DNA of 64,000 nucleotides from an uncultured Candidatus Saccharibacteria bacterium (GTDB taxonomy: Bacteria; Patescibacteriota; Dojkabacteria; B142; JAFGMG01). Shown one piece after another: positions 1 to 58,202 of this stretch. Under the pieces are notes generated by a model. The model was not told the DNA's origin. It saw only the letters and a program-made list of their open reading frames with translations, and searched no databases. The stretch spans positions 1,438-65,437 of the forward strand of contig CAYMJM010000001.1 of NCBI GenBank assembly GCA_964391325.1. The letters run 5' to 3'. Position 1 is the stretch's first letter, and every line of letters starts with the position of its first letter. The position numbers and the translations under genes are program-made.

Positions 1-107
1 GCAAGCATCGTTGAAATCTCTGGACTATTGTCTGAATTGGTGATACATTATTCTTGGATGCGTTATTCATATGAACTTATCCGTTTTTATTTTTTAGTAT
101 TAGCTGT

Positions 108-398
108 ATGGATCCGGTAGAAATTACCCTTGTTGTATTAGGGGTCAGTATTGCTGCCTCTATACTCATTTTAGCTATTCAATTAGCAAGGCTTGCACAG
201 AAATTAATCAATTTAATAAATTTTATTGAAGATACAGCAGAATCAGTTACTGATCTTATAAAGGAACTAAAGGATGATTACAGTGGTATAAAAAGCAAGA
301 TGAACTTTACAACTTTAGGTGCGATAGCTTTTACAGGGGTAGTAAAAGTTGGACGCAGCATCAGAAATTTATTTATTAACGAGGAAAACAATGAGTAG
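108..398 (+). CDS. small membrane protein (single N-terminal TM helix, charged tail); possibly DUF948/YtxG-like
   Basis: 96-aa ORF with a hydrophobic N-terminus (VVLGVSIAASILILAIQL) and a K/E-rich tail; overlaps the next small gene in a stress-protein-like pair. Confidence 0.35.
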   Translation: MDPVEITLVVLGVSIAASILILAIQLARLAQKLINLINFIEDTAESVTDLIKELKDDYSGIKSKMNFTTLGAIAFTGVVKVGRSIRNLFINEENNE

Positions 399-654
399 AC
401 ATAATACAGATTCTCCTTTGTCTTTTATGCTTGGAGCTGTCTTTGGAGCTATGGTCGGAGCAGTTGTCGGAGCATACCTAGTAGATCCTGAAGGCGCTAA
501 GAAAGCTGCCAAAAAGGCTAGGGCTAAAGTCGAGGACGCTGCAGCCAAAGGCAAGGATTTTGTTCAGGAAAAGTATGAGGAGAGCATTAAGCCGAAGGTC
601 GAGGAGGTTAAAGAAAAAGCTGAGGAAAAAGTCAAACAGACACGAGTCAGCTAG
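391..654 (+). CDS. YtxH-like small membrane protein (Gly-rich TM segment followed by K/E/A-rich helix)
   Basis: Internal ATG at 391 preceded by GAGGAAAACA (SD-like); sequence MSRHNTDSPLSFMLGAVFGAMVGAVVGAYL followed by lysine/glutamate-rich tail; the ORF track starts earlier at 349. Confidence 0.45.
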   Translation: MSRHNTDSPLSFMLGAVFGAMVGAVVGAYLVDPEGAKKAAKKARAKVEDAAAKGKDFVQEKYEESIKPKVEEVKEKAEEKVKQTRVS

Positions 655-1366
655 GATAAACGCGGTGAATAAATCCGGCCACTTCATCTGGGAGCTGCTG
701 TATTAAGTAGTGACCTTCATCAGGGTAAGTAACTACTTCAACGCCCTCTATTTGATTTACTGCATTTAGCTGTGCTTTGTAACCGAGTAAATCATCTTGG
801 GATCCTAAGAGTATGAATAAAGGTTTGGTTTGGTCATAGACGGTCAAATTGTTCTTCTGTAAATCTTTAAGCAAGTCTTTTAACCCCAAAAGCCCTTTAA
901 TGTGTTTTAATGTCGAGATTCGAAAAATAGTAGGCGGAATTGGTAGACCTTTCTGCTTGAGAATACTATTGGACTCTTGCGCTTCCTTGTAGCTAACTAC
1001 CAAGTACTTAAATAAGGAGTCTTGGAAGGCTACCGCTGGCGATATGGCTATAGTCGAGTATATCTTGTTCGGGATTGCCTTATGAAGAAGTAAGGACATA
1101 GTGCCTCCTAAAGAGTGTCCTACAAGTAAAAATTTATCTAGCCCTAGTTCTTCTATTGCTTCTAGTATGCAGTTGGTATACGATTTTAATGAGGCCTGCT
1201 TCAAGGCGGGTTTTTCTCCGAAACCAGGATAAAGTATATCAATAACTTTGTAGCTATGCCTTAATTTTTTTAGAAAAGTGTTATAAGAGTTGTGATATAT
1301 CCCTCCTACTCCGGGAAGAAAAAGGATAGGCTTTCCTTCCCCTTGTATTTTTACATCTACTCTCAT
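647..1366 (-). CDS. alpha/beta-fold hydrolase
   Basis: 239 aa; nucleophile elbow GHSLGG, oxyanion region LFLPGVGG, C-terminal PDEGHY (catalytic His region). Confidence 0.7.
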   Translation of the reverse strand: MRVDVKIQGEGKPILFLPGVGGIYHNSYNTFLKKLRHSYKVIDILYPGFGEKPALKQASLKSYTNCILEAIEELGLDKFLLVGHSLGGTMSLLLHKAIPNKIYSTIAISPAVAFQDSLFKYLVVSYKEAQESNSILKQKGLPIPPTIFRISTLKHIKGLLGLKDLLKDLQKNNLTVYDQTKPLFILLGSQDDLLGYKAQLNAVNQIEGVEVVTYPDEGHYLIQQLPDEVAGFIHRVYPS

Positions 1367-1368
1367 GC

Positions 1369-2295
1369 CTATTTTATATATTTGAGTATGGCCATGTAGC
1401 TGGTAATTGTGCCTAGTATCGCGCCAGTTATCAGGAAGGAAATAAAGACTGTGAGAATGTTGATTACATTAAACTGTGGCCAGGCTAGCTGTCCAAACAA
1501 GTTATTCAGGAATACCATGGTGGGAGAAGTCATGGCAGTATAATAAATTACTGCGCCAAATCCTACAAGTAAAATGTTGGATATTAAAGCTCCAGCAATT
1601 CCGTATATCGTTCCTTCCAATATAAAAGGCATGCGTATAAACCATAGGCTTCCCCCGACCAGCTGCATAATTCCTATTTCTTCGGATCGGTTGTAGGTTC
1701 TAAACTCAACAGTAAACAAGGTAAATAGAAAGACCACTATAAGCAGAAGTGTCATGATTACTGCTCCTCCGAGTCTTAGCCAACTAAAGACATCTCTAAT
1801 GTTATTAATGGTGTCCTCGCTGTATCTAACCCTAAAAATATCTTCATTATTTTCCTGCTCGTTGTTGACTAGATTTATGATATCTTCTGCTGTATCAACA
1901 CTATGTAACCTGAGAGCTAGGCTGGCAGGAAGTGTTCTATCTTTGATAGCTTCGGCAGCCAGAGGGTTGACATTTCTTTGAGAATTGTAAAATTCTTCTA
2001 CTGCCTGTTCTTCTGAAGTGTACTCTATATAGTCAATATTAGCTTCTCCTTCCCATCTTGATTTGAGTGCCAGTATATTCTCTTCAGGGATATCTGTTTG
2101 GAAGAAAACGTAAATATGCGGTTTATTTTCAATATATTTCAAAAACAAGTTTGAAGTATATGCAATAGCTCCAAATATTGAAATGACTAGGAAAGCCAAA
2201 GTCATTACTAATATGGATGTCCAGGCAAGCCATCCACTTCTTTTTATCTGCTTTGCAGTCGTTTGCAGAACTCTTTTGCTAGTTACTAATGCCAT
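1369..2295 (-). CDS. ftsX: cell-division ABC transporter permease-like protein FtsX
   Basis: 308 aa; N-terminal TM, large periplasmic loop, three C-terminal TM helices; immediately downstream of and overlapping ftsE. Confidence 0.8.
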   Translation of the reverse strand: MALVTSKRVLQTTAKQIKRSGWLAWTSILVMTLAFLVISIFGAIAYTSNLFLKYIENKPHIYVFFQTDIPEENILALKSRWEGEANIDYIEYTSEEQAVEEFYNSQRNVNPLAAEAIKDRTLPASLALRLHSVDTAEDIINLVNNEQENNEDIFRVRYSEDTINNIRDVFSWLRLGGAVIMTLLLIVVFLFTLFTVEFRTYNRSEEIGIMQLVGGSLWFIRMPFILEGTIYGIAGALISNILLVGFGAVIYYTAMTSPTMVFLNNLFGQLAWPQFNVINILTVFISFLITGAILGTITSYMAILKYIK

Positions 2296-3442
2296 CTTTA
2301 ATTAAATTAAGAACTGAATTAATTTGTTTTAAATCTTTTGGGGACAATTCATCAATTCTGCTCAATTTTTTATATCCAGCTTCTTGCAGCGAGCGAATGT
2401 CGTCATACCCAAAGGCCTTTAAAATACTTATTAACTTAGGGTTGAATCCTACATCTTTGATATCAGTATCTACCGTTACTTTTTTCTCCTTTTCAGTCCG
2501 GTCAATTTTTTGCTGGATTTTTGTCTCGAATTCTTCATTTTTACTTTTTTTCTTCTGCCTTTGTGTAAGACTAATAGCAGGTTCTGGATCAACCGATTGC
2601 TTTTTCTTCTTTGTCGGTTTCTTTTTCTCCTGTTTTATTTCTATTGTTTCAGCTGCTTCTGCGTTGTCGTTGATAGGATCTTCTTTGTCTGTGTTGTCTT
2701 TATGTTCTATAGCCCCTTCCTGCTCTGACTCGGCAATCTTTTTGATGGTTTCAATTTCTGCATGATCTTTGTACTTCCCTTTGATTGCGTCTCTCGTAAT
2801 ACGTCCATTTTCCAATGTTATTACTCTTTTGCCTAAGTTGTCTACTATACCGGAACCATGCGTGGCCATGAGTACAGTTGTTCCCCAATTGTTGATTTTA
2901 GACAATATTTGAACTATGTCCCAAGCTGAGTCTGGGTCCAGATTCCCTGTCGGTTCATCTGCTATTAGAAGTTTGGGATTATTTGATATTGCTCTGGCGA
3001 TTGCAACACGCTGCTTCTCTCCGCCAGAGAGCTGATTGGGGAAAGCGTCGCTTTTATTAGATAATCCTACAATATCCAGTACATAAGGGACGGTTTCCTT
3101 GATGTCGCGTGTGCTTTTGCCTGCAGCCTCCATAGCAAAGGAGACATTTTCAAATGCCGTTTTGTCAGGGACCAGTTTGTAGTCTTGAAATACCACTCCA
3201 ATCTTTCGCCTTAATTCATAGATCTGGCGTCTTTTATAGTTGGTTATTTCCTCGTCATCGAAATAAATTCTGCCTTCAGTTGGTTTTTCCTCTCGTATCA
3301 AATGCCGAATAATGGTAGTTTTCCCTGACCCAGAAGGGCCGATTAGAAAAAGAAATTCACCTTCGTTTATCTCAAAGCTTATACTGTCCAGAGCCAGGTA
3401 GTTATTGGGATATAGTTTTGAAACAGATATAAATTGAATCAC
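2279..3442 (-). CDS. ftsE: cell-division ATP-binding protein FtsE with long C-terminal K/E-rich extension and HhH-like terminal segment
   Basis: Walker A GPSGSGKTT, ABC signature LSGGEKQRVAIARA, Walker B LLIADEPTGNLD, H-loop ATHG; operonic with ftsX; about 160 extra C-terminal residues. Confidence 0.85.
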   Translation of the reverse strand: MIQFISVSKLYPNNYLALDSISFEINEGEFLFLIGPSGSGKTTIIRHLIREEKPTEGRIYFDDEEITNYKRRQIYELRRKIGVVFQDYKLVPDKTAFENVSFAMEAAGKSTRDIKETVPYVLDIVGLSNKSDAFPNQLSGGEKQRVAIARAISNNPKLLIADEPTGNLDPDSAWDIVQILSKINNWGTTVLMATHGSGIVDNLGKRVITLENGRITRDAIKGKYKDHAEIETIKKIAESEQEGAIEHKDNTDKEDPINDNAEAAETIEIKQEKKKPTKKKKQSVDPEPAISLTQRQKKKSKNEEFETKIQQKIDRTEKEKKVTVDTDIKDVGFNPKLISILKAFGYDDIRSLQEAGYKKLSRIDELSPKDLKQINSVLNLIKDGISN

Positions 3443-3569
3443 ACTAGTTTGAAATTAAAAGTTCCATAAACTAGTATAGCGAACAAATTTAATTTGAGCA
3501 ATTTCAGTCAAGTATTTTATGTAAATAGGGTCTTGACTTTAGTATAATAGAGTAATTACAGTTTATATC

Positions 3570-4049
3570 ATGAAAGGAAAATTTGTACTAGTTTTGCTGT
3601 TTGCTATATTATTTATAAATATTGCGGCAGTCTTATTTCAAGAGAGTAAGTCCACGGAGTTCAATACAGGCACCTTAGTTAATGAGATAAATTTGACAGA
3701 ACAGGTTGATACCGAGGAAAAAGAAACTGGCAGTATAGGAGAAAGCGGAGCATTTATACAAAGAGCTGAAGCTGCCGTTGATAATTCAACCGCGCTGGAA
3801 AAGTCTCGGGCTAACCAGTTGCGGATAAACCAGAATCAAAAGTGGACAGCAACTGATTATGACTTGGGTGATATACAAACCAATCCTTATGAAGTACAAT
3901 TGGGAGATACACTCTGGGAAATAGCTGAAGCCTACTACGGCAACGGACAATTATGGACGCAAATTCTGGAATTGAATAGCAGTTCAATTGGATATATAGA
4001 TAATATGCAAGTTAAAATTATCCCAGGGCAGATTCTAGTTTTAGAATAA
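3570..4049 (+). CDS. secreted LysM-domain protein
   Basis: N-terminal signal/TM (VLVLLFAILFINIAAVLF); C-terminal LysM-like block YEVQLGDTLWEIAEAYYGNGQLWTQILELN. Confidence 0.6.
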   Translation: MKGKFVLVLLFAILFINIAAVLFQESKSTEFNTGTLVNEINLTEQVDTEEKETGSIGESGAFIQRAEAAVDNSTALEKSRANQLRINQNQKWTATDYDLGDIQTNPYEVQLGDTLWEIAEAYYGNGQLWTQILELNSSSIGYIDNMQVKIIPGQILVLE

Positions 4050-25587: not shown

Positions 25588-26074
25588 CCTCTATGGCAGC
25601 ATTTTCACGTATCTCGCTATCCAGGCTGTTTTGTTTTTCAAGTTTAGCATTATAGTCATTGATTAGATCTTGAATATTGACTTTTTCAGAAGAAGCTAGA
25701 GCCCTTTCGTACCTTTCCGCACTTTTTATAAGTTCGCGTGATATTGCGATAAAAGACAGATTTTTTTCTTTGAGTGCTTTGTTCATAAATAGCTCTTTTG
25801 TAGTTTCAATCTTGAGTTCCAGTTCTCCAATACTGCTTTCCAAATCAGTATATACTTGATTGCTTCCCTCTTCTAGAGAATCTATTTTCAAGCTGATAGT
25901 TAGGGTTTCTGTATCGGATAAAACTTTGTTTCTTAGCGGTTGTATTTCATTTTCATATTCTACAGGCACTTTTAAGTTGCTAATAAAAAAAACTGTGATA
26001 GTTAAGCAAAGAATAATAGACAAACTGATAGTTATTGTTCGTATGTTTATATTTATTTTTACCAATTTTTTCAT
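25559..26074 (-). CDS. membrane-anchored coiled-coil protein, unknown function
   Basis: N-terminal TM helix followed by heptad-like charged region. Confidence 0.35.
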   Translation of the reverse strand: MKKLVKININIRTITISLSIILCLTITVFFISNLKVPVEYENEIQPLRNKVLSDTETLTISLKIDSLEEGSNQVYTDLESSIGELELKIETTKELFMNKALKEKNLSFIAISRELIKSAERYERALASSEKVNIQDLINDYNAKLEKQNSLDSEIRENAAIEVNYFLELFH

Positions 26075-26130
26075 AAAAGTATTTAGGTGTTAGGTTTAAG
26101 TATAACTACCTACTAACTTGTAGATACATT

Positions 26131-27330
26131 TTAAAAATCTACTTGTTTAAGAAAATCATTACCAAGCTGAATAGCCTCTGGAAGTGACATACCCATGTGT
26201 GACTCAAATAATGTTTCCCAAACTTTAAGATACTCTTCTGGTGCAACACTTTGTTGAAAAGGGCTGAGGGCATCCTGATAGTCTATAATTGCCTGTTTAA
26301 AATTTGTAATGCTTCGATAGAAAAAAGGGTAGGATTTATTTGTGTTATTTTTACTGATACGTGTGTAGTGTGCTAAAAGCGCATTGAAAATAATCGCGGA
26401 GAACAGGTAGCTTCGAGAAATTTGGGCATTTGGGAAATCTACAAATAATGAATTAACATCCATCCATTCCAGCAGAATATTTTTCCTGACGTTTTCATAA
26501 TTAAAGTCTCGAGTACTGGCTAACGGCAGTTCATCTAAGACCATAAGTAAGTCCAGGGGATTTGCTTGTATTTCAAAGGTTTGTGCGATCCCCTCGTCGA
26601 TTATAGGCAATAAACGCGTATCACTTCCCCCTGTTGCTTTCTCCATAGCAAAATGACCTAGTTCATGCTTTATACTACCTACACTTGTGTTATATATTGT
26701 TGCTACATTTTCATCTGCCCTATAATGCCCGCATTCACGAATATTTTTTTGTATTCCTAAATTTGATAGAACTAGTAAAGTCATTCCTGCAAAAATCTGT
26801 GGCTGTCCAGCAGTAAATTTGAGTACTGTTTCTAGAGACTCCCTGACATCTGCACTAAGCAGAAATTCATCGACTTCTTCGAAATTGATTTCAGCTTCCT
26901 GAGGCGGTTGCTTAAATGTAAAAAATTCAAATTCAAAAGGTTTTTTTCGTCGCCCGAGCCTATCAAGTATTGCCTTGGGTTTGAATCTCACAGTTCCAAA
27001 TGAAGGGCTTAGTTTTTGTCCTTTAATTTTATCTACAATGAACGATAAAGCTTCTAAACTCTCTAACCAGGCTTCATCATCTTTAGTCCTTGCTAATTGT
27101 CCCCCATGCTGGTACAGCATCAATGTATTAGCTGCTGTAAATAGAGCTTGAATGCCCTTGCCGTAGACAGCTTTTGCAGAATAAAAATTTCCGTCAGGAT
27201 TAGTCCATTCAGCAATCAGGTCTTCAGCATAATCAACTGGGTTTTGTGCTTCTAATATATTATCTACAAAACCATAAAAATTTTGCCGTACTTGCTGATC
27301 CTCTGGTGGTTGAATTAGTTCTTGTTGCAT
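26131..27330 (-). CDS. hypothetical cytoplasmic protein with HExxH motif (putative zinc metallohydrolase)
   Basis: 399 aa; single HELGH motif (SIKHELGHFAMEK), no signal peptide. Confidence 0.4.
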   Translation of the reverse strand: MQQELIQPPEDQQVRQNFYGFVDNILEAQNPVDYAEDLIAEWTNPDGNFYSAKAVYGKGIQALFTAANTLMLYQHGGQLARTKDDEAWLESLEALSFIVDKIKGQKLSPSFGTVRFKPKAILDRLGRRKKPFEFEFFTFKQPPQEAEINFEEVDEFLLSADVRESLETVLKFTAGQPQIFAGMTLLVLSNLGIQKNIRECGHYRADENVATIYNTSVGSIKHELGHFAMEKATGGSDTRLLPIIDEGIAQTFEIQANPLDLLMVLDELPLASTRDFNYENVRKNILLEWMDVNSLFVDFPNAQISRSYLFSAIIFNALLAHYTRISKNNTNKSYPFFYRSITNFKQAIIDYQDALSPFQQSVAPEEYLKVWETLFESHMGMSLPEAIQLGNDFLKQVDF

Positions 27331-27431
27331 TATTAGCTTTTTGTTAATTCTTTTCTCTAGTATATTTTACTATATGTTACTTGATAAATGGTTTTAATTA
27401 CTACTTAAGTAGCTGTTGCGGAGGCAGGAGT

Positions 27432-28436
27432 TTAGGTATTTACATTCTTTACATTCAAATATTGAGAATCCAAGGGTTGTTTTATCCCTTTCTTTAAAGG
27501 TTGGTGGTGCTTTTTGCTCCGTGGTTTCCTATAGCTTGCAATTGCTACTCCAGCAATTACTATAATCAATGCGATAATCTGTATTAAATAAACATTTTCT
27601 TCTAACCACAATACTCCTAGAGGTATAAATATTAACGGTTGTAAATAATAAAAAAGACTGGCCTCAGAAACTTCTATCAAAGACTGGCCTTTTAAGTATG
27701 CAGTTAAGGCTACCACCGAGCCTAAAGCCCCCATATACACTGCAGCGAAAATTACCTCCCAGTGTTGTAGATCCGATGATATAGACTGTCGAAGCGCCTC
27801 ATATGAGCCAGCTGACAAGGCAGAGATTACGAGAAAGCTGATCATGCCCACAAAGAAACTTATTCCGGCTGCATATAGTTTAGGGACATAGGTGTAAGTC
27901 TTTTTGGCAAGAATAAAATAGGTAGCGCCAGAGATATTGTTCAGTAGAATCAACATACTGCCTAAAAGTGACATTTCCATATTCACCCCGACTTTATTGA
28001 AAAAAGGGATTAAAGTCAGCAAAAGAGTCCCTGTAAATGCAAATACCAGACCTATAGCTTCGTGGCGTTCTTGCTTTTCTTTTAGAAAGATAATTCCACC
28101 CAGTACTGTGAACAAAGGAGAGGTGGTTGCTATTAAGCTAGCTTCTATCGAAGACGTCTGAGAAAGTCCTAGGTATAAAAGACTAAGCGTTAATGTGACA
28201 CCAAGTAACTCAAGGGTGATGATTTTAAATGTTGTGTGTAAATATTTTTTCTTCTGACTAACAAAATAGATGATAATAGGGACAGATAGGACAGATGCCA
28301 CACTAAAGCGGTAAAACAGGAATCTGAAAGGGTCGGTAAACTCATATGAATTTTTAACTATTTGTAGGGAAGCCCCCCAAATGATGGTATTTATCAGAAG
28401 GAGAATGTATGCTTTGGTTCTACTCGATAGGTTCAT
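27432..28436 (-). CDS. EamA/DMT-family transporter
   Basis: 334 aa, 10 TM helices in two EamA-like repeats. Confidence 0.75.
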   Translation of the reverse strand: MNLSSRTKAYILLLINTIIWGASLQIVKNSYEFTDPFRFLFYRFSVASVLSVPIIIYFVSQKKKYLHTTFKIITLELLGVTLTLSLLYLGLSQTSSIEASLIATTSPLFTVLGGIIFLKEKQERHEAIGLVFAFTGTLLLTLIPFFNKVGVNMEMSLLGSMLILLNNISGATYFILAKKTYTYVPKLYAAGISFFVGMISFLVISALSAGSYEALRQSISSDLQHWEVIFAAVYMGALGSVVALTAYLKGQSLIEVSEASLFYYLQPLIFIPLGVLWLEENVYLIQIIALIIVIAGVAIASYRKPRSKKHHQPLKKGIKQPLDSQYLNVKNVNT

Positions 28437-28483
28437 GGGGTTAATATAACTTGAAATTTATATGATGTCCAGCTTCACGTTAA

Positions 28484-28508
28484 AAGGGCGCCGAAGGCGC
28501 CCTTGTTT
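28484..28508. terminator. bidirectional rho-independent terminator hairpin
   Basis: GGGCGCC-GAAG-GCGCCC perfect 7-bp GC stem flanked by A/T runs, immediately 3' of sodA. Confidence 0.55.
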
Positions 28509-28522
28509 ATTCCTGTTGGTCT

Positions 28523-29140
28523 TCAGTTATTTGCTTTAAATAATTCTGCAACTTTTTTCCAATTAACTACATTCCACCAATTTTCGATATACTCAGGTCT
28601 CCTGTTTTGGTACTTCAGATAGTATGCATGCTCCCACACATCCAAACCAAGAATAGGCACATAGTCTTGCATATAAGGAGAATCTTGGTTTGGCGTACTT
28701 GATATCTCCAATTCCCCGTTGTTAAACACCAGCCAGACCCAGCCACTTCCAAATCTTGTAGAGGCAGCACTATTAAATTCCTGTTGAAAATCTTCAAAGC
28801 TCCCGAATTTAGTTTCTATTGCAGCCCGTAATTCTCCTTCAGGTTCTTTCCCTGCTTTTGGAGCCATAATCTCCCAAAATAACATATGATTGGCATGCCC
28901 CCCACCATTATTTATGACCTGTTGGCGGATATCATCCGGTATATTTTGAATATCTCGCAGTATTTCTGTGATATCTACTGTATAATATTCGTTATGGTCT
29001 TCGAGAGCAGCATTAAGCTTATCTATGTATCCTTGATGGTGCTTTGTATGATGAAGCTCCATAGTCTTAGCATCTATGAATGGCTCAAGAGCAGCATATC
29101 CATAAGGAAGATCCGGAAGAGTAAATTTGTCTTCTGTCAT
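28523..29140 (-). CDS. sodA: Fe/Mn superoxide dismutase
   Basis: [22 protein letters not shown]-terminal DVWEHAYY metal-ligand motif; start taken at the internal ATG (29140) rather than the TTG at 29173. Confidence 0.9.
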
Positions 29141-29214
29141 ATAACTTAGATAATATATAAAATATTTTAACAAGAAACTCTAAATTAGAACTATATTAAC
29201 TCCTTTTTATTACA

Positions 29215-29667
29215 ATGAAAAATAGCAGAGTCATTAAAGTCGTCTATTATTACTACTTAAATATTCTTTTGATAATTACAGGAATTGGCACTATTATTAG
29301 TCTGTATATAAGTGAGTTCCAAGACCTTCCCCCATGTGACCTGTGCTGGTATCAAAGGGTATTTTTCTATCCAATCTTTTTTATCACACTTTTTGCATTA
29401 ATTAGAAAAGATCAGAAAGCTTATTATTATCTGCTCCCATTGGCTGTAACTGGGTTGCCAATCTCCATCTATCATCATCTACTGAAAGTTACTACCCTCT
29501 TTCCTAAGGAAACTTTTTTTTGCGGAGAACTTGGATCGTGCAGCGAAATTGACTGGGAACTCATACAAGGAAGTGGAATAACTCTTCCACTGCTTGCAGG
29601 GTTAGGCTTTCTTTCCGTCATTTTGGTTTCGATTCTTGCTATTTATCAAAGTAGACGAAGTAAATAA
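29215..29667 (+). CDS. disulfide bond formation protein B (BdbC-type)
   Basis: 150 aa, 4 TM helices, CDLCWYQR redox pair and second Cys pair in periplasmic loop; closely resembles Bacillus BdbC layout. Confidence 0.75.
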   Translation: MKNSRVIKVVYYYYLNILLIITGIGTIISLYISEFQDLPPCDLCWYQRVFFYPIFFITLFALIRKDQKAYYYLLPLAVTGLPISIYHHLLKVTTLFPKETFFCGELGSCSEIDWELIQGSGITLPLLAGLGFLSVILVSILAIYQSRRSK

Positions 29668-29673
29668 TTTTGC

Positions 29674-29964
29674 CTAACTATTGATAAATCTAACTCTGCC
29701 GCTAGTTTCTAAATCGATGGCTATACGTCTTACTTGCTCAGGAAGTATAGGAGGTTTTAAAGAATATCCAAGTAGCTGCTCGGAATTTTCAGGATTTAAT
29801 AATAGTGATCCTACTATTGTCAGTAAGGCTTCTCTTTTTACTATGTGAAATGCCTCTGCTGTTTTAAGACTTTCTGGGTCATAACCGAAGCTTTCCACAA
29901 CTGGACCTATTGGTTCCTTTGCTTGGGCAGAAGGGTATATTTCAATAGTAAATACATTTGCCAT
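29674..29964 (-). CDS. hypothetical protein
   Basis: 96-aa ORF, no motifs. Confidence 0.3.
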   Translation of the reverse strand: MANVFTIEIYPSAQAKEPIGPVVESFGYDPESLKTAEAFHIVKREALLTIVGSLLLNPENSEQLLGYSLKPPILPEQVRRIAIDLETSGRVRFINS

Positions 29965-30099
29965 AGATCCCTATCTAATAACTACTGGGTTATAACAGAA
30001 ATTTAGATTCAAGTAAAAAGTGAGTTAGATGCATATTAAAATTTTTGTAATAAATAATTATTGCATGTAGAATGCCGAGATAATTATTAAGGAAGTTTT

Positions 30100-30330
30100 A
30101 TGCCAGAAGCAACACCTACTCCAGTACCTCAGGATGAACAGCTTAGGCCATCAGCTTGGGATCCAGATAATCCATGTTATCCATATGAGCCTGGGCCAGA
30201 TGTCCCTGAAGGATCTTTAGAAGCTTCAGGTGTAATGTTTGGAGATGATTTGTATGATGACCCTTATAGAGATAACAGTAATGAAGGCATGGGGCATGTT
30301 GACTGGAGGGGTACGCAAAGTCCGAAATAG
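30100..30330 (+). CDS. small Pro/Asp-rich hypothetical protein
   Basis: 76-aa ORF preceded by AAGGAAG 8 nt upstream of ATG. Confidence 0.3.
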   Translation: MPEATPTPVPQDEQLRPSAWDPDNPCYPYEPGPDVPEGSLEASGVMFGDDLYDDPYRDNSNEGMGHVDWRGTQSPK

Positions 30331-30676
30331 AACTAATAATAAAAGGTCCGAGTACTCGAACCTTTTTGCTATATTAAGTTTACTCTTTTATTCACTTTCC
30401 TTAAATTTATTTATTAGTTTCTCCACAGCCGCTCTTTTCGAATCTGTTGTAGTTGGAGGCACTGTTTCTGTCTCGCTGGTGCTTGCTGCCTCTTCAGGTA
30501 AATCATTTGGTGAATTATCTATAGGGTCTCCTGCTGCAGGAGGTGGTACCTCAGGTGAAGGTATATTCATCCTAATTTTTTAATATATAATGATTACAAC
30601 ATACCATACTAATTTATTAAATAAAAGACTCTTTACATATATATTAATGTGAATTAGGAATTAGCGAGAAGTGTCG

Positions 30677-30777
30677 TTCTCGATACGCCAGCCTTCGGCT
30701 GGCTACTCGAACTGACAGGGTTAATATGTTAGCTCACACTGTCACTTCGAGCCTTGAGCGAAGGTAAGGGGTCGAGA
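30677..30777. repeat. structured palindromic repeat element, copy A
   Basis: Nested inverted repeats (TCTCGA...TCGAGA outer; CTCGAACTGACA...TGTCACTTCGAG inner) plus GCCAGCC-TTCG-GGCTGGC hairpin; homologous in inverted orientation to 57072-57190. Confidence 0.45.
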
Positions 30778-30893
30778 TGATCTTGTTGAAAGGTAGACAC
30801 GAATATTCGAATTAATTAATTATTGCCGACTCTTTATCAATGAGATATAATCAAACTGCGTATTTAAACAGAGTAATTAGGTATTGATACATA

Positions 30894-31021: not shown

Positions 31022-31098
31022 GGGCGCCTAGCTCAACTGGCTAGAGCAATTCGTTTACACCGAATAGGTTGAGGGTTCGAGTCCCCCGGCGCCCACCA
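31022..31098 (+). tRNA. tRNA-Val(TAC)
   Basis: Acceptor GGGCGCC/GGCGCCC, anticodon stem ATTCG/CGAAT, loop TTTACAC, T-loop TTCGAGT, encoded CCA. Confidence 0.85.
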
Positions 31099-31605
31099 AT
31101 TTTTAATAGTGCCTTCATGTCAAAAATTAATAATGAACCTTGTTGTTGCTGTCCATAAGCTTTTTAAGCTTGGCTTTGGTTTATTTATTAATTTTGCAGA
31201 TGTGATTACTCCTGAATCTCAAATCCAATCTGATATACCGCCAGATAGACAGAATCAAGCAACAGTCATGCTTACGAACCTTGGCCTAACTTTGGTAATG
31301 AACAAAGGTGGATGTTTTATGAATCCGGATTTATTAGAGATGGATATCAAATAAGGGCTTTGTTCGTACAAGCTCGTAGGTACTATTTATGGTGTTGACG
31401 CGGAAGAACTTTATTTTGAAATATCTGCTCAGGACCGAGATTTATGCCTCCCTGCTCCTTGGAGAGTACAAACTGAATTGTGGGTCCAGACATTTAACAA
31501 GCTGCTGAGAGGCGATGTGGATTTACTAGGGGCCTATTCTGTGTTACAGGAAAATTATATTTGCAATTTGCGTAATTGCATTTAGTTTATGATAAAATAT
31601 GCTAT

Positions 31606-31715
31606 GCGGCAGTAGTTCAGTCCCGACATGAACCGCAAGGGTTTCATGTCGTGGATCCTCGATTTAGTGATTCGCCTTCGGCGAAAGCTAAATCGGGATT
31701 GGCTAGAACGTTTCC
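31606..31715 (+). pseudogene. 5'-half fragment of tRNA-Gly(GCC) (positions 1-32) interrupted in the D-loop by a 78-nt two-hairpin insertion
   Basis: GCGGCAGTAGTTCAGT + 78-nt insert + TGGCTAGAACGTTTCC is identical to the first 32 nt of the intact tRNA at 31739; the insert folds as CGACATGAACC-GCAA-GGGTTTCATGTCG and a 12-bp hairpin with a TTCGCC/GGCGAA inner stem. Confidence 0.5.
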
Positions 31716-31738
31716 GTATCTATTGATAAACGAATATT

Positions 31739-31815
31739 GCGGCAGTAGTTCAGTTGGCTAGAACGTTTCCTTGCCAAGGAAAAGGTCGCCGGTTCGACCC
31801 CGGTCTGCCGCTCCA
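31739..31815 (+). tRNA. tRNA-Gly(GCC)
   Basis: Acceptor GCGGCAG/CTGCCGC, anticodon stem TTTCC/GGAAA, loop TTGCCAA, T-loop TTCGACC, discriminator U, encoded CCA. Confidence 0.9.
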
Positions 31816-55156: not shown

Positions 55157-57058
55157 ATGTCTAAAATAGTTGGAATTGACCTTGGAACTAGTAACTCCGC
55201 AATAGCCTATGTGACCGGAGGGAAGCCTGAAATAATTGCAAACAAAGAAGGTGGAAGGACAACCCCTTCTGTAATTGCAATATCTTCTGATGCTGTAGAA
55301 GAAATTATTGTGGGCGTGCCAGCCAAGAATCAGATGGTAACAAACCCCGAACAGACTTTCTACTCAATAAAAAGATTGATTGGAAGGAGATGGGATGATC
55401 CGGATATTGAACAAGACAAGAAGCTCCTACCCTTTGAGCTAAGGAAAAGCGGTAAAGGTGGAGTTGAAATAGAATTTGGAAACCAATGGCTTGCTCCAGA
55501 AGCAATTTGTGCCAAAGTACTTGCTAAACTGAAAGCAGATGCTGAGGCTTTCTTGGGTGAAGAAGTTAAGGAAGCAGTGATAACAGTTCCCGCTTACTTT
55601 GATGATTCTCAAAGACAGGCAACCAAAAATGCAGGGAAAATAGCAGGTCTCGATGTAAAAAGAATTATTAACGAGCCTACAGCTGCAGCTCTGGCTTACG
55701 GTCTGGATCAGAAACAGGATCAAAATATTGCGGTCTATGATCTGGGTGGAGGCACGTTTGATATTTCAATTCTCGAAATTGGTGATGGTATATTTGAGGT
55801 TAAGGCCACAAATGGAGATACCCATCTAGGAGGAGATGACTTTGATCAGGAAATAATTGATAGCTTAATCGATGAATTTAAAAAAGACACAGGAATTGAT
55901 TTAAGGAGTGATCCTGCTGCGTTACAGAGGCTTAAAGAAGCAGTTGAAAAGGCAAAAATTACACTGTCAAGCACAGAAAAAACAGAGATTAACTTGCCAT
56001 ACATAACGGCAGACAAAAATGGTCCAAAGCATTTTAGGAAAGAGATGACCCGATCTGATTTGGAAAAATTAGTTTCGGACCTTATTGACAAGACTCTTGA
56101 GCCGTGTAGAAAAGCACTTGTCGACGCAAAACTCTCTGTATCAGATATAGATGAAGTAATTTTAGTCGGGGGAATGACCAGAATGCCACTTATCAAGAAA
56201 AAGGTTGAGGAGTTTTTTGGTAGAAAACCTCATGAAGGTGTAAATCCTGATGAAGTTGTGGCAATTGGAGCAGCTATACAAGGTGCAGTTCTTGCTGGAG
56301 ATGAAAATGTGAAAGACGTCACCCTCCTAGATGTTACTCCGCTAACTTTAGGCTTGGAAACCCTTGGAGGGGTTAGAACACCCTTGATTCCTCGGAATAC
56401 AACTATACCAACAGAAAAATCACAGGTTTTTTCGACAGCTGCCGATAACCAGACAGCAGTAGAAATTCATGTATTGCAGGGAGAAAGGGAGATGGCAAGT
56501 GATAATAAAACTTTAGGAAAATTTATACTTGACGGTATCCCTCCGGCACCAAGGGGGGTTCCTCAAGTAGAAGTTACTTTTAAAATAGATGCTAATGGGA
56601 TACTAAGTGTTTCTGCTAAAGACAAAGCAACAGGTAAAGAGCAAAGCATAACAATCACAGCATCTACTCACATGAGTGAAGATGAAATTGACAAAATGGT
56701 CGAAGAGGCTTCAAAATATGCTGCTGAAGATAAAAAGAAGAAGGAAAGGGTTGAAATCCATAATGTCGCTGATACGTTAGTATTTCAGGTAGAAAAATTT
56801 ATCGAAGAAATGAAAGAAAAATTAGATAATACCGATAAGGAGGAGCTTGAGGAAAAAGCAAAAGAGCTGAAAGAGATAATTAATAAAGAAGACTTCGTTA
56901 ACGAAGATGTAAAAATTAAGACGGAAGAGCTATCAAAGTTACTGCAGCAAAAAGGGGCTAAGATGTACGAAAAAGCATCAAAAGAAGCTGAAGAAGAACA
57001 GAAAGATTCCAAAAGTGAAGAAAAAAGTTCGGAAGCTGAAGAAGGGGAAGTGGTCTAA
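55157..57058 (+). CDS. dnaK: molecular chaperone DnaK (Hsp70)
   Basis: [18 protein letters not shown], full nucleotide-binding and substrate-binding domains, acidic tail. Confidence 0.97.
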
Positions 57059-57071
57059 TAAAACCACAGCA

Positions 57072-57190
57072 CCTCTCGACCCTTCGTTTACACTCAGGAC
57101 TCAAGGCTCAAACTGACACGCTATATTTTGATTTAATATGTCAGTTCGAGCCTGTCGAGACCTTATTTCCCATAGCTAAGGTATGTCGAG
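57072..57190. repeat. structured palindromic repeat element, copy B (inverted relative to copy A)
   Basis: CTCTCGAC ... GGCTCAAACTGACACG - loop - TGTCAGTTCGAGCC ... GTCGAGAC/GTCGAGAG; reverse complement aligns with 30677-30777; sits in the convergent dnaK/nrnA-like intergenic region. Confidence 0.45.
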
Positions 57191-57206
57191 AGAAAATACT
57201 ATTATT

Positions 57207-58202
57207 TTAGGTACCAAAATATTCTGAGATTTTTTTCCTGGTAAGTGCTAATGCTTCATAGGGGTCATCTGTATCTAATGTGGCACCGGAAGCTGAGTCG
57301 TGCCCTCCACCCCCTAACAGTTCAGCAACTTTTCGCACATTTTGACCATTCATCCTTGATCTAAAGGATACTTTGCATTCTTTGGCATCACTATCAGGAT
57401 TCACTAAGAACCCCCAATTATACCCTTCTCTACCTAGCAAAATATCAATGATTAGATTCTTCAGTATATCCATTTGTGTAGAATTGAGACCAAGCAGATC
57501 ATATACATCTTTAGTAATGTAGCTGTAGGAGTATTTCAGCTGCTCATCAAACTTAAGATTGTTTATAATTACCTTAGCTGCGTTAAGTACAGGTTCATCG
57601 TACGATTTAATTTTTTCGGCTATTTCTGACGCTACAGCACCATTCTCAATTAACTTCGCTACAATTTCGAAAGTATTCTTATTAACTGTCTTGGTAGAAA
57701 AGCCATTTGTATCATCGTAGATCCCTGCTAGAAGCGCTTTTGCTGTCTGAACGCTAAAGTCTACATGCTCCTGGAATAGCTCAAAGACGATCTCACTAGT
57801 CGAAGGATAATTCTTACGAACATATAAAACTGCTTCCAAATCAGATTCGTAGATGTGATGATCTATTACAACTACTTTTTGTTCTGGCTGTAGAGGAAAG
57901 TCTCCTTTTGTTATTCTAGATTTTCTGTTTGCGTCGAGCACTATTATTAAGTCAAATTTCTGCGTAAAAACAGAATCTGATAAATTGGCTTGAATGATCC
58001 TCTTAGTACCTTCTAAAAATGAATAAGCGTGAGGGGGTGAGTCCTCTACAGCCATAGTTATCTCTTTATCTTTAAATCCTTTAAGAATCCAATATAGTCC
58101 GACCATAGATCCAATAGCATCAAAATCATGGTTAAGATGCGTGGTAAGCAATATATTAGCTGATTGATTAATGGTCTCTATTAATTCTTTACTTTCTTGC
58201 AT
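57207..58202 (-). CDS. DHH/DHHA1 phosphoesterase (NrnA-like oligoribonuclease / pAp phosphatase)
   Basis: DHH motifs (HLNHDFDAIGS; DHH at about 115), DHHA1 GGGGH. Confidence 0.75.
   Translation of the reverse strand: MQESKELIETINQSANILLTTHLNHDFDAIGSMVGLYWILKGFKDKEITMAVEDSPPHAYSFLEGTKRIIQANLSDSVFTQKFDLIIVLDANRKSRITKGDFPLQPEQKVVVIDHHIYESDLEAVLYVRKNYPSTSEIVFELFQEHVDFSVQTAKALLAGIYDDTNGFSTKTVNKNTFEIVAKLIENGAVASEIAEKIKSYDEPVLNAAKVIINNLKFDEQLKYSYSYITKDVYDLLGLNSTQMDILKNLIIDILLGREGYNWGFLVNPDSDAKECKVSFRSRMNGQNVRKVAELLGGGGHDSASGATLDTDDPYEALALTRKKISEYFGT

Follow-up and report, generated by a model that had tools for sequence, protein, structure and literature searches.

Two palindromic elements of a Dojkabacteria-like genome belong, by sequence and predicted fold, to a repeat family found around a small GIY-YIG nuclease gene in Bacteroidota

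The DNA analyzed here, from now on referred to as the window, is a 64-kb stretch of about 37% G+C that carries five tRNA genes and encodes a DHH/NrnA protein whose named homologues are found only in Candidatus Dojkabacteria, at about 50% identity. On this basis, its source is a Dojkabacteria-like bacterium of the candidate phyla radiation (CPR). Apart from tRNA, the window matches no Rfam family. Two palindromic elements, copy A and copy B, could be identified in it. Copy A has a small minus-strand ORF on one side and the genes for tRNA-Phe and tRNA-Val on the other, and is co-oriented with the tRNAs. Copy B is located in the spacer between convergent nrnA (ending at 57207, minus strand) and dnaK (ending at 57058, plus strand), where it represents the only strong structure, and is co-oriented with the upstream nrnA. 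As the coordinates confirm, both elements are intergenic and occupy opposite strands about 26 kb apart, as stated in a preliminary description of this DNA. Positions and component parts are collected in Table 1.

Table 1 Positions and parts of the two elements and of associated features in the window
Feature	Position	Strand	Remarks
Copy A	30677-30778	+	palindromic element, intergenic
Inter-unit spacer remnant, GCGAGAAGT-GTCG	30664-30676	+	likeness to array junctions
Copy A left module M(+)	30677-30717	+	outer arm, hairpin, TA, inner arm
Copy A left outer arm TTCTCGATAC	30677-30686	+	
Copy A first hairpin GCCAGCC-TTC-GGCTGGC	30687-30703	+	
Copy A left inner arm CTCGAACTGACA	30706-30717	+	preceded by TA
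Copy A variable linker/loop L3	30718-30739	+	22 nt
Copy A right module M(-)	30740-30778	+	inner arm, hairpin, TAAG, outer arm
Copy A right inner arm TGTCACTTCGAG	30740-30751	+	
Copy A second hairpin CCTT-GAGCG-AAGG	30752-30764	+	followed by TAAG
Copy A right outer arm GGGTCGAGAT	30769-30778	+	
Promoter-like site TTGCCG-17-TATAAT	30823-30851	+	downstream of copy A, upstream of tRNA-Phe
Copy B	57073-57192	-	palindromic element, intergenic, block order as in copy A
Copy B left module	57139-57192	-	outer arm, hairpin, extra segment, inner arm
Copy B left outer arm CTCTCGAC	57192-57185	-	
Copy B first hairpin ACCTTA...TAAGGT	57182-57160	-	sequence wholly unlike the first hairpin of copy A
Copy B extra segment CTCGACAGG	57159-57151	-	
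Copy B left inner arm CTCGAACTGACA	57150-57139	-	
Copy B variable linker/loop L3	57119-57138	-	20 nt
Copy B right module	57073-57118	-	inner arm, CCTTGAG...GAAGG region, outer arm
Copy B right inner arm TGTCAGTTTGAG	57118-57107	-	one G:U pair
Copy B CCTTGAG...GAAGG region	57106-57081	-	
Copy B right outer arm GTCGAGAG	57080-57073	-	

The outer inverted repeat TCTCGA/TCGAGA first described for copy A is present and perfect, and the closing arm of both copies contains GTCGAGA. The inner arms of copy A do form the inverted repeat assigned to them, with a central C:C mismatch that the preliminary description lacked. The inner loop given there as 20 nt has this length in copy B and two further nucleotides in copy A, while the GC hairpin exists but consists of a 7-bp stem and a 3-nt TTC loop, the reported TTCG string having one G too many. 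Ordered blocks said to be shared with the reverse complement of 57072-57190 correspond to what is now copy B, in which they are arranged identically. The left-module blocks of copy A are identical to the Flavobacteriaceae consensus presented below, and the block CTCAAGG-CTCGAAGTGACA, on the opposite strand of its right module, is common to copy B and to a unit found on a metagenome contig (L025). By sequence comparison, the spacer remnant that precedes copy A is similar to the flavobacterial inter-unit junction ...ATCGAGAAGTA...GTCGAG. Around copy A, GTGTC at 30671-30675 is complementary to GACAC at 30796-30800.

Two additional features were observed in the neighborhood of copy A. The only canonical terminator-like hairpin near it (AAAAGGTTCGAGTACTCGGACCTTTT with a T-rich tail, 30341-30366, minus strand) is located downstream of a 60-aa low-complexity ORF (30388-30570), the gene status of which is uncertain. 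Further, the stretch at 31606-31738 (plus strand) duplicates the 5' part of tRNA-Gly(GCC) (GCGGCAGTAGTTCAGT ... TTGGCTAGAACGTTTCC), the tRNA-Gly itself being located at 31739-31815. A hairpin-rich insert (cccgacatgaaccgcaagggtttcatgtcg...gatttagtgattcgccttcggcgaaagctaaatc, about 78 nt) interrupts the duplicate within its D-loop region. The duplicate could be an integration or recombination remnant or else an unusual structured element linked to the tRNA; scanning 31095-31745 against Rfam at permissive thresholds gave no match.

Copies A and B each fold into a four-way junction (z = -4.0 and -6.1, respectively), with none of 200 shuffled controls being as stable as either copy, and the same junction is the minimum-energy fold in most units of the wider family. 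In both window copies, a single module, M, occurs as an inverted doublet. In M, a variable hairpin is framed by the outer arm TTCTCGAyAC and the inner arm ACTCGAA(C/G)TGACA. The family consensus reads GTTCTCGATAC-AAT...ATC-ACTCGAA-C-TGACA for the left half and TGTCA-C-TTCGAGT-GAT...ATT-GTATCGAGAA for the right half. Because these halves are reverse complements of one another, save for the central C/G and the first base, a unit can be described as two inverted copies of M, and the mirror relationship extends even to positions at the hairpin bases that do not pair (AAT...ATC versus GAT...ATT). Likewise, a G:U at the base of the fourth helix, found in 13 of 20 units, mirrors an A:C at the base of the second helix. 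If a strand folds on itself or the duplex is extruded, the outer arms would pair with each other, the inner arms would do the same and each module would form its own hairpin, resulting in a four-way junction that is paired almost perfectly. In a covariation alignment of 23 units, standard pairs occupied 92% of cells and 13 pairs had changed on both sides; the observed pairing values were reached by none of 500 shuffles, and sliding the partners lowered pairing to 29-45%. Hammerhead, twister-sister and other ribozyme cores, as well as a tRNA-like cloverleaf and a T-arm-like hairpin in the inner arm, were considered by eye and rejected, the conserved nucleotides required for each being absent.

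Membership of both copies in this family was established with a covariance model (R2) built from 20 aligned Bacteroidota units (alignment A4) and containing zero window sequence, for which the outer helix, the inner helix and the bases of both hairpins were specified as structure. R2 assigned 42 bits to copy A (E 6e-9), 38 bits to copy B (E 6e-8) and 43 bits to the L025 unit, and matched nothing beyond copies A and B in 120 kb comprising the window and three relatives' loci. A fuller model (R1), used without filters, likewise returned only copies A and B from the window, the next match scoring 13 bits. Both copies were also recovered by a descriptor scan and carry the ordered family blocks TTCTCGAyAC...ACTCGAAsTGACA-linker-TGTCAsTTCGAG...GTrTCGAGAA. 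Judged by their sequences, copies A and B are therefore related members of a real structured repeat family. The idea that they are chance palindromes or unrelated GC-rich hairpins could draw on there being only two copies in 64 kb and on 12-mers that, allowing up to two mismatches, occur outside both loci at near-chance frequency, but it is refuted by the E-values of the independent model and by blocks identical to, and ordered as in, those of another phylum, and we regard it as extremely improbable. Since a model made solely from Bacteroidota finds both copies and nothing else in the window or in three relatives' loci, the match is due neither to chance nor to generic terminator hairpins; the shared blocks are specific conserved arms, not the generic GC hairpins that had been named as the possible extent of the similarity.

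Outside the window, Flavobacteriaceae, Leadbetterella and one AT-rich metagenome contig (L025, 38.6% G+C) yielded more than 40 units that agree with the copies in architecture and almost completely in their core blocks, in support of the initial view that the elements represent a dispersed repeat family and not a chance palindrome. Collection scans used strict patterns. Scanning the genome collection for the inner helix yielded Leadbetterella, Flagellimonas, a Flavobacteriaceae MAG and Psychroflexus gondwanensis, all belonging to the Bacteroidota, and these matches keep the block order and near-identical arms. Two other matches (L016 and L020), found in high-GC sequence and missing the outer arms, were treated as chance. 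The metagenome scan with a CPR-type pattern returned only a JGI contig with the copy A locus of the same species, arranged as in the window (L024), and L025, the latter probably also derived from a CPR bacterium; three CPR-type copies are known, namely A, B and the one on L025. The L025 copy (1526-1700) is a mosaic with three segments of inner-arm type (CTCGAAGCGACA, CTCGAACTGACA and TGTCACTTCGAG) and can alternatively form a long hairpin (-72.7 kcal/mol). There were 0 matches among viral contigs and 0 among plasmids, and no copies were found in the relatives' loci L011, L012, L014 and L033-L036.

Flavobacteriia carry tandem arrays of modules in alternating orientation. The Psychroflexus locus (L023) contains a tandem array of eight complete units and additional partial ones with a period of 124-146 nt, as well as a solo unit 4.6 kb from the array; solo doublets occur in Leadbetterella, too. 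Arrays follow the order M(+)-L3-M(-)-S-M(+)... with two linker types, L3 and S. L3 varies more than any other segment of the family. Two module classes can be distinguished by a C or G at the center of the inner arm. Alternating arrays with two linkers are the layout of Escherichia coli BIMEs. Mosaic arrays alternating between the two classes are found in Psychroflexus, Maribacter and Winogradskyella but not in the window, which has two solo doublets 26 kb apart and in which motif scans detected neither isolated modules nor further copies. In Psychroflexus, each module class has its own set of hairpin types, shuffled among units, while hairpins are nearly absent in Leadbetterella, where the units on two different contigs of one genome (L017 and L022) are near-identical except for L3 and two other substitutions. 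Short tandem repeats with 7-, 14- and 21-nt periods (GACTAAC / CGACTAACAACCCC) abut the end of the Psychroflexus array (L023, 3168-3235).

A small gene accompanies the flavobacterial units. Within its array, Psychroflexus carries an ORF of 87-95 aa with a GIY-YIG domain (Pfam PF01541), and the Flavobacteriaceae MAG has such an ORF between its two units; it corresponds to a stand-alone 95-aa UPF0213 gene, for whose product NCBIfam holds no family name. More than 200 close homologues exist, all of about 95-100 aa and, wherever the source is named, from Flavobacteriaceae, and the only relatives with solved structures are the UPF0213 proteins 1zg2 and 1ywl. Residues Y5, Y15, G17, R25, H29 and E63 are invariant in seven homologues, and we take them to be catalytic positions of this fold. 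Modules flank the gene at each of the eight loci examined. Two of these loci were reached through the repeat (L021 and L023), the others through the protein only (L026, L027, L028, L029, L030 and L031/L032), the latter picks being Hyunsoonleella, Winogradskyella, two Maribacter genomes, a Bacteroidota MAG and Algibacter. All protein-picked loci have modules on both sides, running in the same direction as the gene, and the Bacteroidota MAG (L030) exhibits the minimal form M(-)-gene-M(+). Module order is polar relative to the gene at each of the six informative loci, where unit polarity, read as the strand of the C:C mismatch, always matches the GIY-YIG sense strand. The position of the gene is not fixed, being inside L3 in Winogradskyella (L027) and in the spacer elsewhere. 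A fixed homing site was considered and rejected, as the linker that holds the gene varies from genus to genus. The tip of the inner helix in Winogradskyella covaries around the gene, from ACA/TGT to ACG/CGT. This consistent adjacency suggests that the flavobacterial nuclease may act on the repeats. In the 64-kb window, no GIY-YIG gene was detected by tblastn or phmmer.

Array size differs between close strains. The two Maribacter genomes have flanks that are 96.5-98.7% identical, and their unit counts differ by exactly one both before and after the gene. One of them also carries a gene matched by the 23S_rRNA_IVP family (PF05635; L028, 4110-4469), which the other (L029) lacks although the region is colinear in all else.

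With respect to the window copies, orthologous sites in relatives lack them. Relatives with 72%, 56% and 50% NrnA identity have no copy B in their nrnA-dnaK spacer, two of the three having an ordinary two-way terminator hairpin at this place, and copy A is absent upstream of the tRNA-Phe promoter-like site in a relative with 75% SOD identity (L033). Copy B is found in all ten contigs that share the exact NrnA protein, a sample biased to near-identical strains. At the strain level, contig L034 is 99.35% identical over 4.9 kb (window 25735-30675) and then loses colinearity at 30675/30676, exactly at the 5' edge of copy A; as a Logan contig it may, in principle, be a chimera, though a shared 31-mer is not apparent. 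In its place, L034 (1330-1510) carries a single module, ACCTTGAGCTT-GCCCGCCCGCCGGCTGGCG-TGGTCGAAAGGT, within the same GTGTC...GACAC frame, followed by ndk and other genes absent from the window, which replace the tRNA cluster. The block CCTTGAGCTTGTCGAAAGGT is common to this allele and the L025 copy. A second contig of the same strain type (L035) ends about 3 nt short of the copy A edge. No insertion or excision event was caught among these sequences, L034 representing a rearranged allele and not a clean empty site. The L034 allele is bounded by a 16-nt inverted repeat (TTAATGTGAATTAGGA / TCCTAATTCACATTAA), of which the window has the left copy only. As a separate observation, Dojkabacteria relatives (L011, 1-3077; L012 and L013, each 1-3727) encode a ribonucleotide reductase large subunit of 1432-1444 aa that matches the RNR N- and C-terminal domains twice each in addition to TSCPD, which suggests an intein or an internal duplication.

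Some of these properties would be expected of MITE-like elements, with the outer arms serving as terminal inverted repeats and movement in trans by a DDE, HUH or serine transposase: the terminal inverted repeats themselves, small size, intergenic position, lineage specificity and association with a break in synteny. However, target-site duplications are found in the flanks of neither copy A nor copy B, no IS-type transposase adjoins any unit examined and the 95-aa GIY-YIG gene is the only one embedded among the units at the eight loci. Head-to-tail arrays of alternating modules are also atypical of MITEs, as are conserved internal arms and cores that are near-identical across phyla. We therefore consider a MITE-like nature very improbable.

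The immediate surroundings of the copies were analyzed for transcription signals. The promoter-like site that separates copy A from tRNA-Phe is kept as TTGCCT-17-TATAAT in L033 (about 500-530) and, on the strength of this conservation, is probably the real promoter of the tRNA operon; no promoter-like site was found upstream of copy A. As this shared site intervenes and the 75% relative does without the element, the position of copy A upstream of the tRNA-Phe/Val cluster looks incidental. A consensus scan for a stem followed by a T run found no terminator at copy A, at copy B or elsewhere in the nrnA-dnaK spacer. Beyond the outer helix of copy B, one strand continues with GGTTTTATT and the opposite strand with AAAATACTATTATTTT. 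Copy B occupies the position of the relatives' terminator hairpin and has probably been co-opted as a two-way terminator and RNA-stabilizing structure between convergent nrnA and dnaK. This placement, in a spacer with no other terminator, together with the dyad symmetry of the core, would also fit elements that are nothing but binding sites for a host protein or elaborate two-way terminators lacking mobility of their own. Neither function would need a core of about 45 nt held in common by Bacteroidota and a Dojkabacteria-like genome, arrays of up to about 10 units or a location around a nuclease gene; moreover, copy A is situated between divergent units, where a terminator is unneeded, and neither copy has the stem plus T run of the scan. 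Such an explanation seems rather improbable to us.

An RNA-level function deserves more consideration. The units could be structured non-coding RNA genes or domains of about 100-130 nt with a four-way junction, which in Flavobacteriia would be transcribed with or beside the GIY-YIG gene, for example as an inhibitor resembling a type III antitoxin, a scaffold or a guide; in the window, copy A would be a stand-alone RNA and copy B a 3' UTR element. The strong fold and its compensatory changes are consistent with this, as are the directions of copy A and copy B relative to the tRNAs and nrnA, the agreement of unit polarity with the GIY-YIG sense strand and the resemblance of tandem arrays beside a small nuclease gene to ToxI/ToxN. 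Further, both window copies fold better in the orientation given in Table 1, with 5 G:U pairs compared with 0-1 on the other strand. Across the family, however, there is no consistent bias as to which strand folds better, and the units of Maribacter and several of those of Psychroflexus favor the antisense strand. An argument from the conserved G:U of the fourth helix to an RNA was dropped, this pair mirroring the A:C of the opposite module, as expected of one DNA module present in two orientations. Other points against an RNA are the lack of a promoter-like site upstream of copy A, the conserved tRNA promoter being downstream of it, the absence of the copies from close relatives and their variability between strains, and the variable copy number in arrays. 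Characterized GIY-YIG enzymes act on DNA. Finally, searches of the window copies, six Bacteroidota loci and the Psychroflexus array against Rfam 15, at gathering and permissive thresholds, brought only tRNAs to threshold, sub-threshold permissive matches being to unrelated families with a best E of 0.029-0.5 and bit scores of at most half the gathering score. Overall, we judge an RNA role to be unlikely.

A DNA repeat similar to REP and BIME elements is better supported. It is favored by the dyad-symmetric modules, the alternating arrays with variable linkers, the gain and loss of units between close strains, the orthologous sites without copies, the location of one copy at a breakpoint, the missing strand bias in the family and the consistent embedding of a DNA nuclease of the Slx1/ANKLE1 superfamily among the modules. 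We infer that the active form is DNA, and our reading is that copies A and B are probably non-autonomous REP/BIME-like DNA repeats with a GIY-YIG nuclease as partner enzyme. We hypothesize that the small nuclease would recognize the conserved arms in folded or branched DNA and nick or cut there, after which repair, recombination or re-insertion could spread, amplify and reshuffle the modules. Its role would parallel that supposed for RAYT transposases in the case of REPs. The window copies may then be orphans that entered a Dojkabacteria-like lineage recently, in connection with a local rearrangement. A more far-reaching proposal, which we put forward only tentatively and hold to be doubtful, is that the repeat and the 95-aa UPF0213 GIY-YIG protein constitute an unrecognized class of mobile or selfish DNA, in which a minimal structure-specific nuclease recognizes a self-folding four-way-junction repeat and drives its spread, array amplification and recombination.

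If the REP/BIME-like reading holds, it would represent a second bacterial partnership of repeat and nuclease beside REP/RAYT, with another nuclease fold and another DNA structure. It would give a testable function to the widespread UPF0213/YhbQ GIY-YIG family, to which no role is assigned despite solved structures, and account for the long structured intergenic arrays of marine Flavobacteriia. The more far-reaching proposal would imply a system able to cross phyla, from Bacteroidota to CPR bacteria. The near-identical core of about 45 nt in a tiny CPR genome and in Bacteroidota points to either recent DNA exchange or very strong sequence-specific recognition. In practical terms, the elements mark strain-level breakpoints and contig ends and can be mistaken for small RNA genes or terminators. 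In the full-text literature searched, a scope outside which much subscription literature falls, we found no description of the element or of its association with GIY-YIG genes.

Several known systems resemble the one described here. REP, BIME and REPIN elements are extragenic imperfect palindromes that form mosaic arrays and have a RAYT partner (PMC3116915, PMC3337134, PMC8266576). Shared with them are the extragenic imperfect palindromes, the alternation of two-class modules in mosaic arrays with two kinds of linker, the inverted doublet as the dispersed unit, a single- or low-copy nuclease gene flanked by repeats and secondary roles in termination and mRNA stabilization. In contrast, modules measure about 26-60 nt here, or about 40-55 nt by a narrower estimate, and 20-40 nt in REPs, and have arms TTCTCGAyAC and ACTCGAACTGACA around a variable hairpin instead of the GTAG/CGTC head of REPs. 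The doublet folds into a four-way junction and not, as in REP/REPIN, into a single hairpin, the partner gene encodes a 95-aa UPF0213 GIY-YIG protein in place of an HUH Y1 transposase and the hosts are Bacteroidota and CPR bacteria, whereas REP/BIME/RAYT systems are found in Proteobacteria.

As to the enzyme, Slx1 acts on branched DNA. The GIY-YIG nuclease ANKLE1 is reported to cleave a cruciform junction (PMC10287932). Slx1, ANKLE1 and UPF0213/YhbQ have the catalytic fold in common with the flavobacterial protein, and the predicted junction of the repeat would be a branched substrate of this type. They are, however, repair or resolution factors without a known cognate repeat family, and the activity of the flavobacterial protein is putative.

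Palindromic elements of Rickettsia, the Correia elements of Neisseria and other MITE-like structured repeats of bacteria are often co-transcribed with neighboring genes and can terminate transcription. Like the present units, they are dispersed, about 100-150 nt long and endowed with strong predicted secondary structure. Unlike them, they show target-site duplications or in-frame insertion into genes, are not known to form alternating arrays or to have a dedicated GIY-YIG partner and are confined to one genus or family. Type III ToxI/ToxN systems likewise place structured tandem repeats next to a co-directed small nuclease gene. ToxI units, however, are about 36 nt long, are located only upstream of the toxin and are not known as dispersed solo copies, whereas the units described here are found on both sides of the GIY-YIG gene and also far from any such gene; ToxN, moreover, is an endoribonuclease of unrelated fold. 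We rate the combination of a repeat with a dedicated nuclease as a known kind of system, and the enzyme fold and the DNA structure as what is new here.
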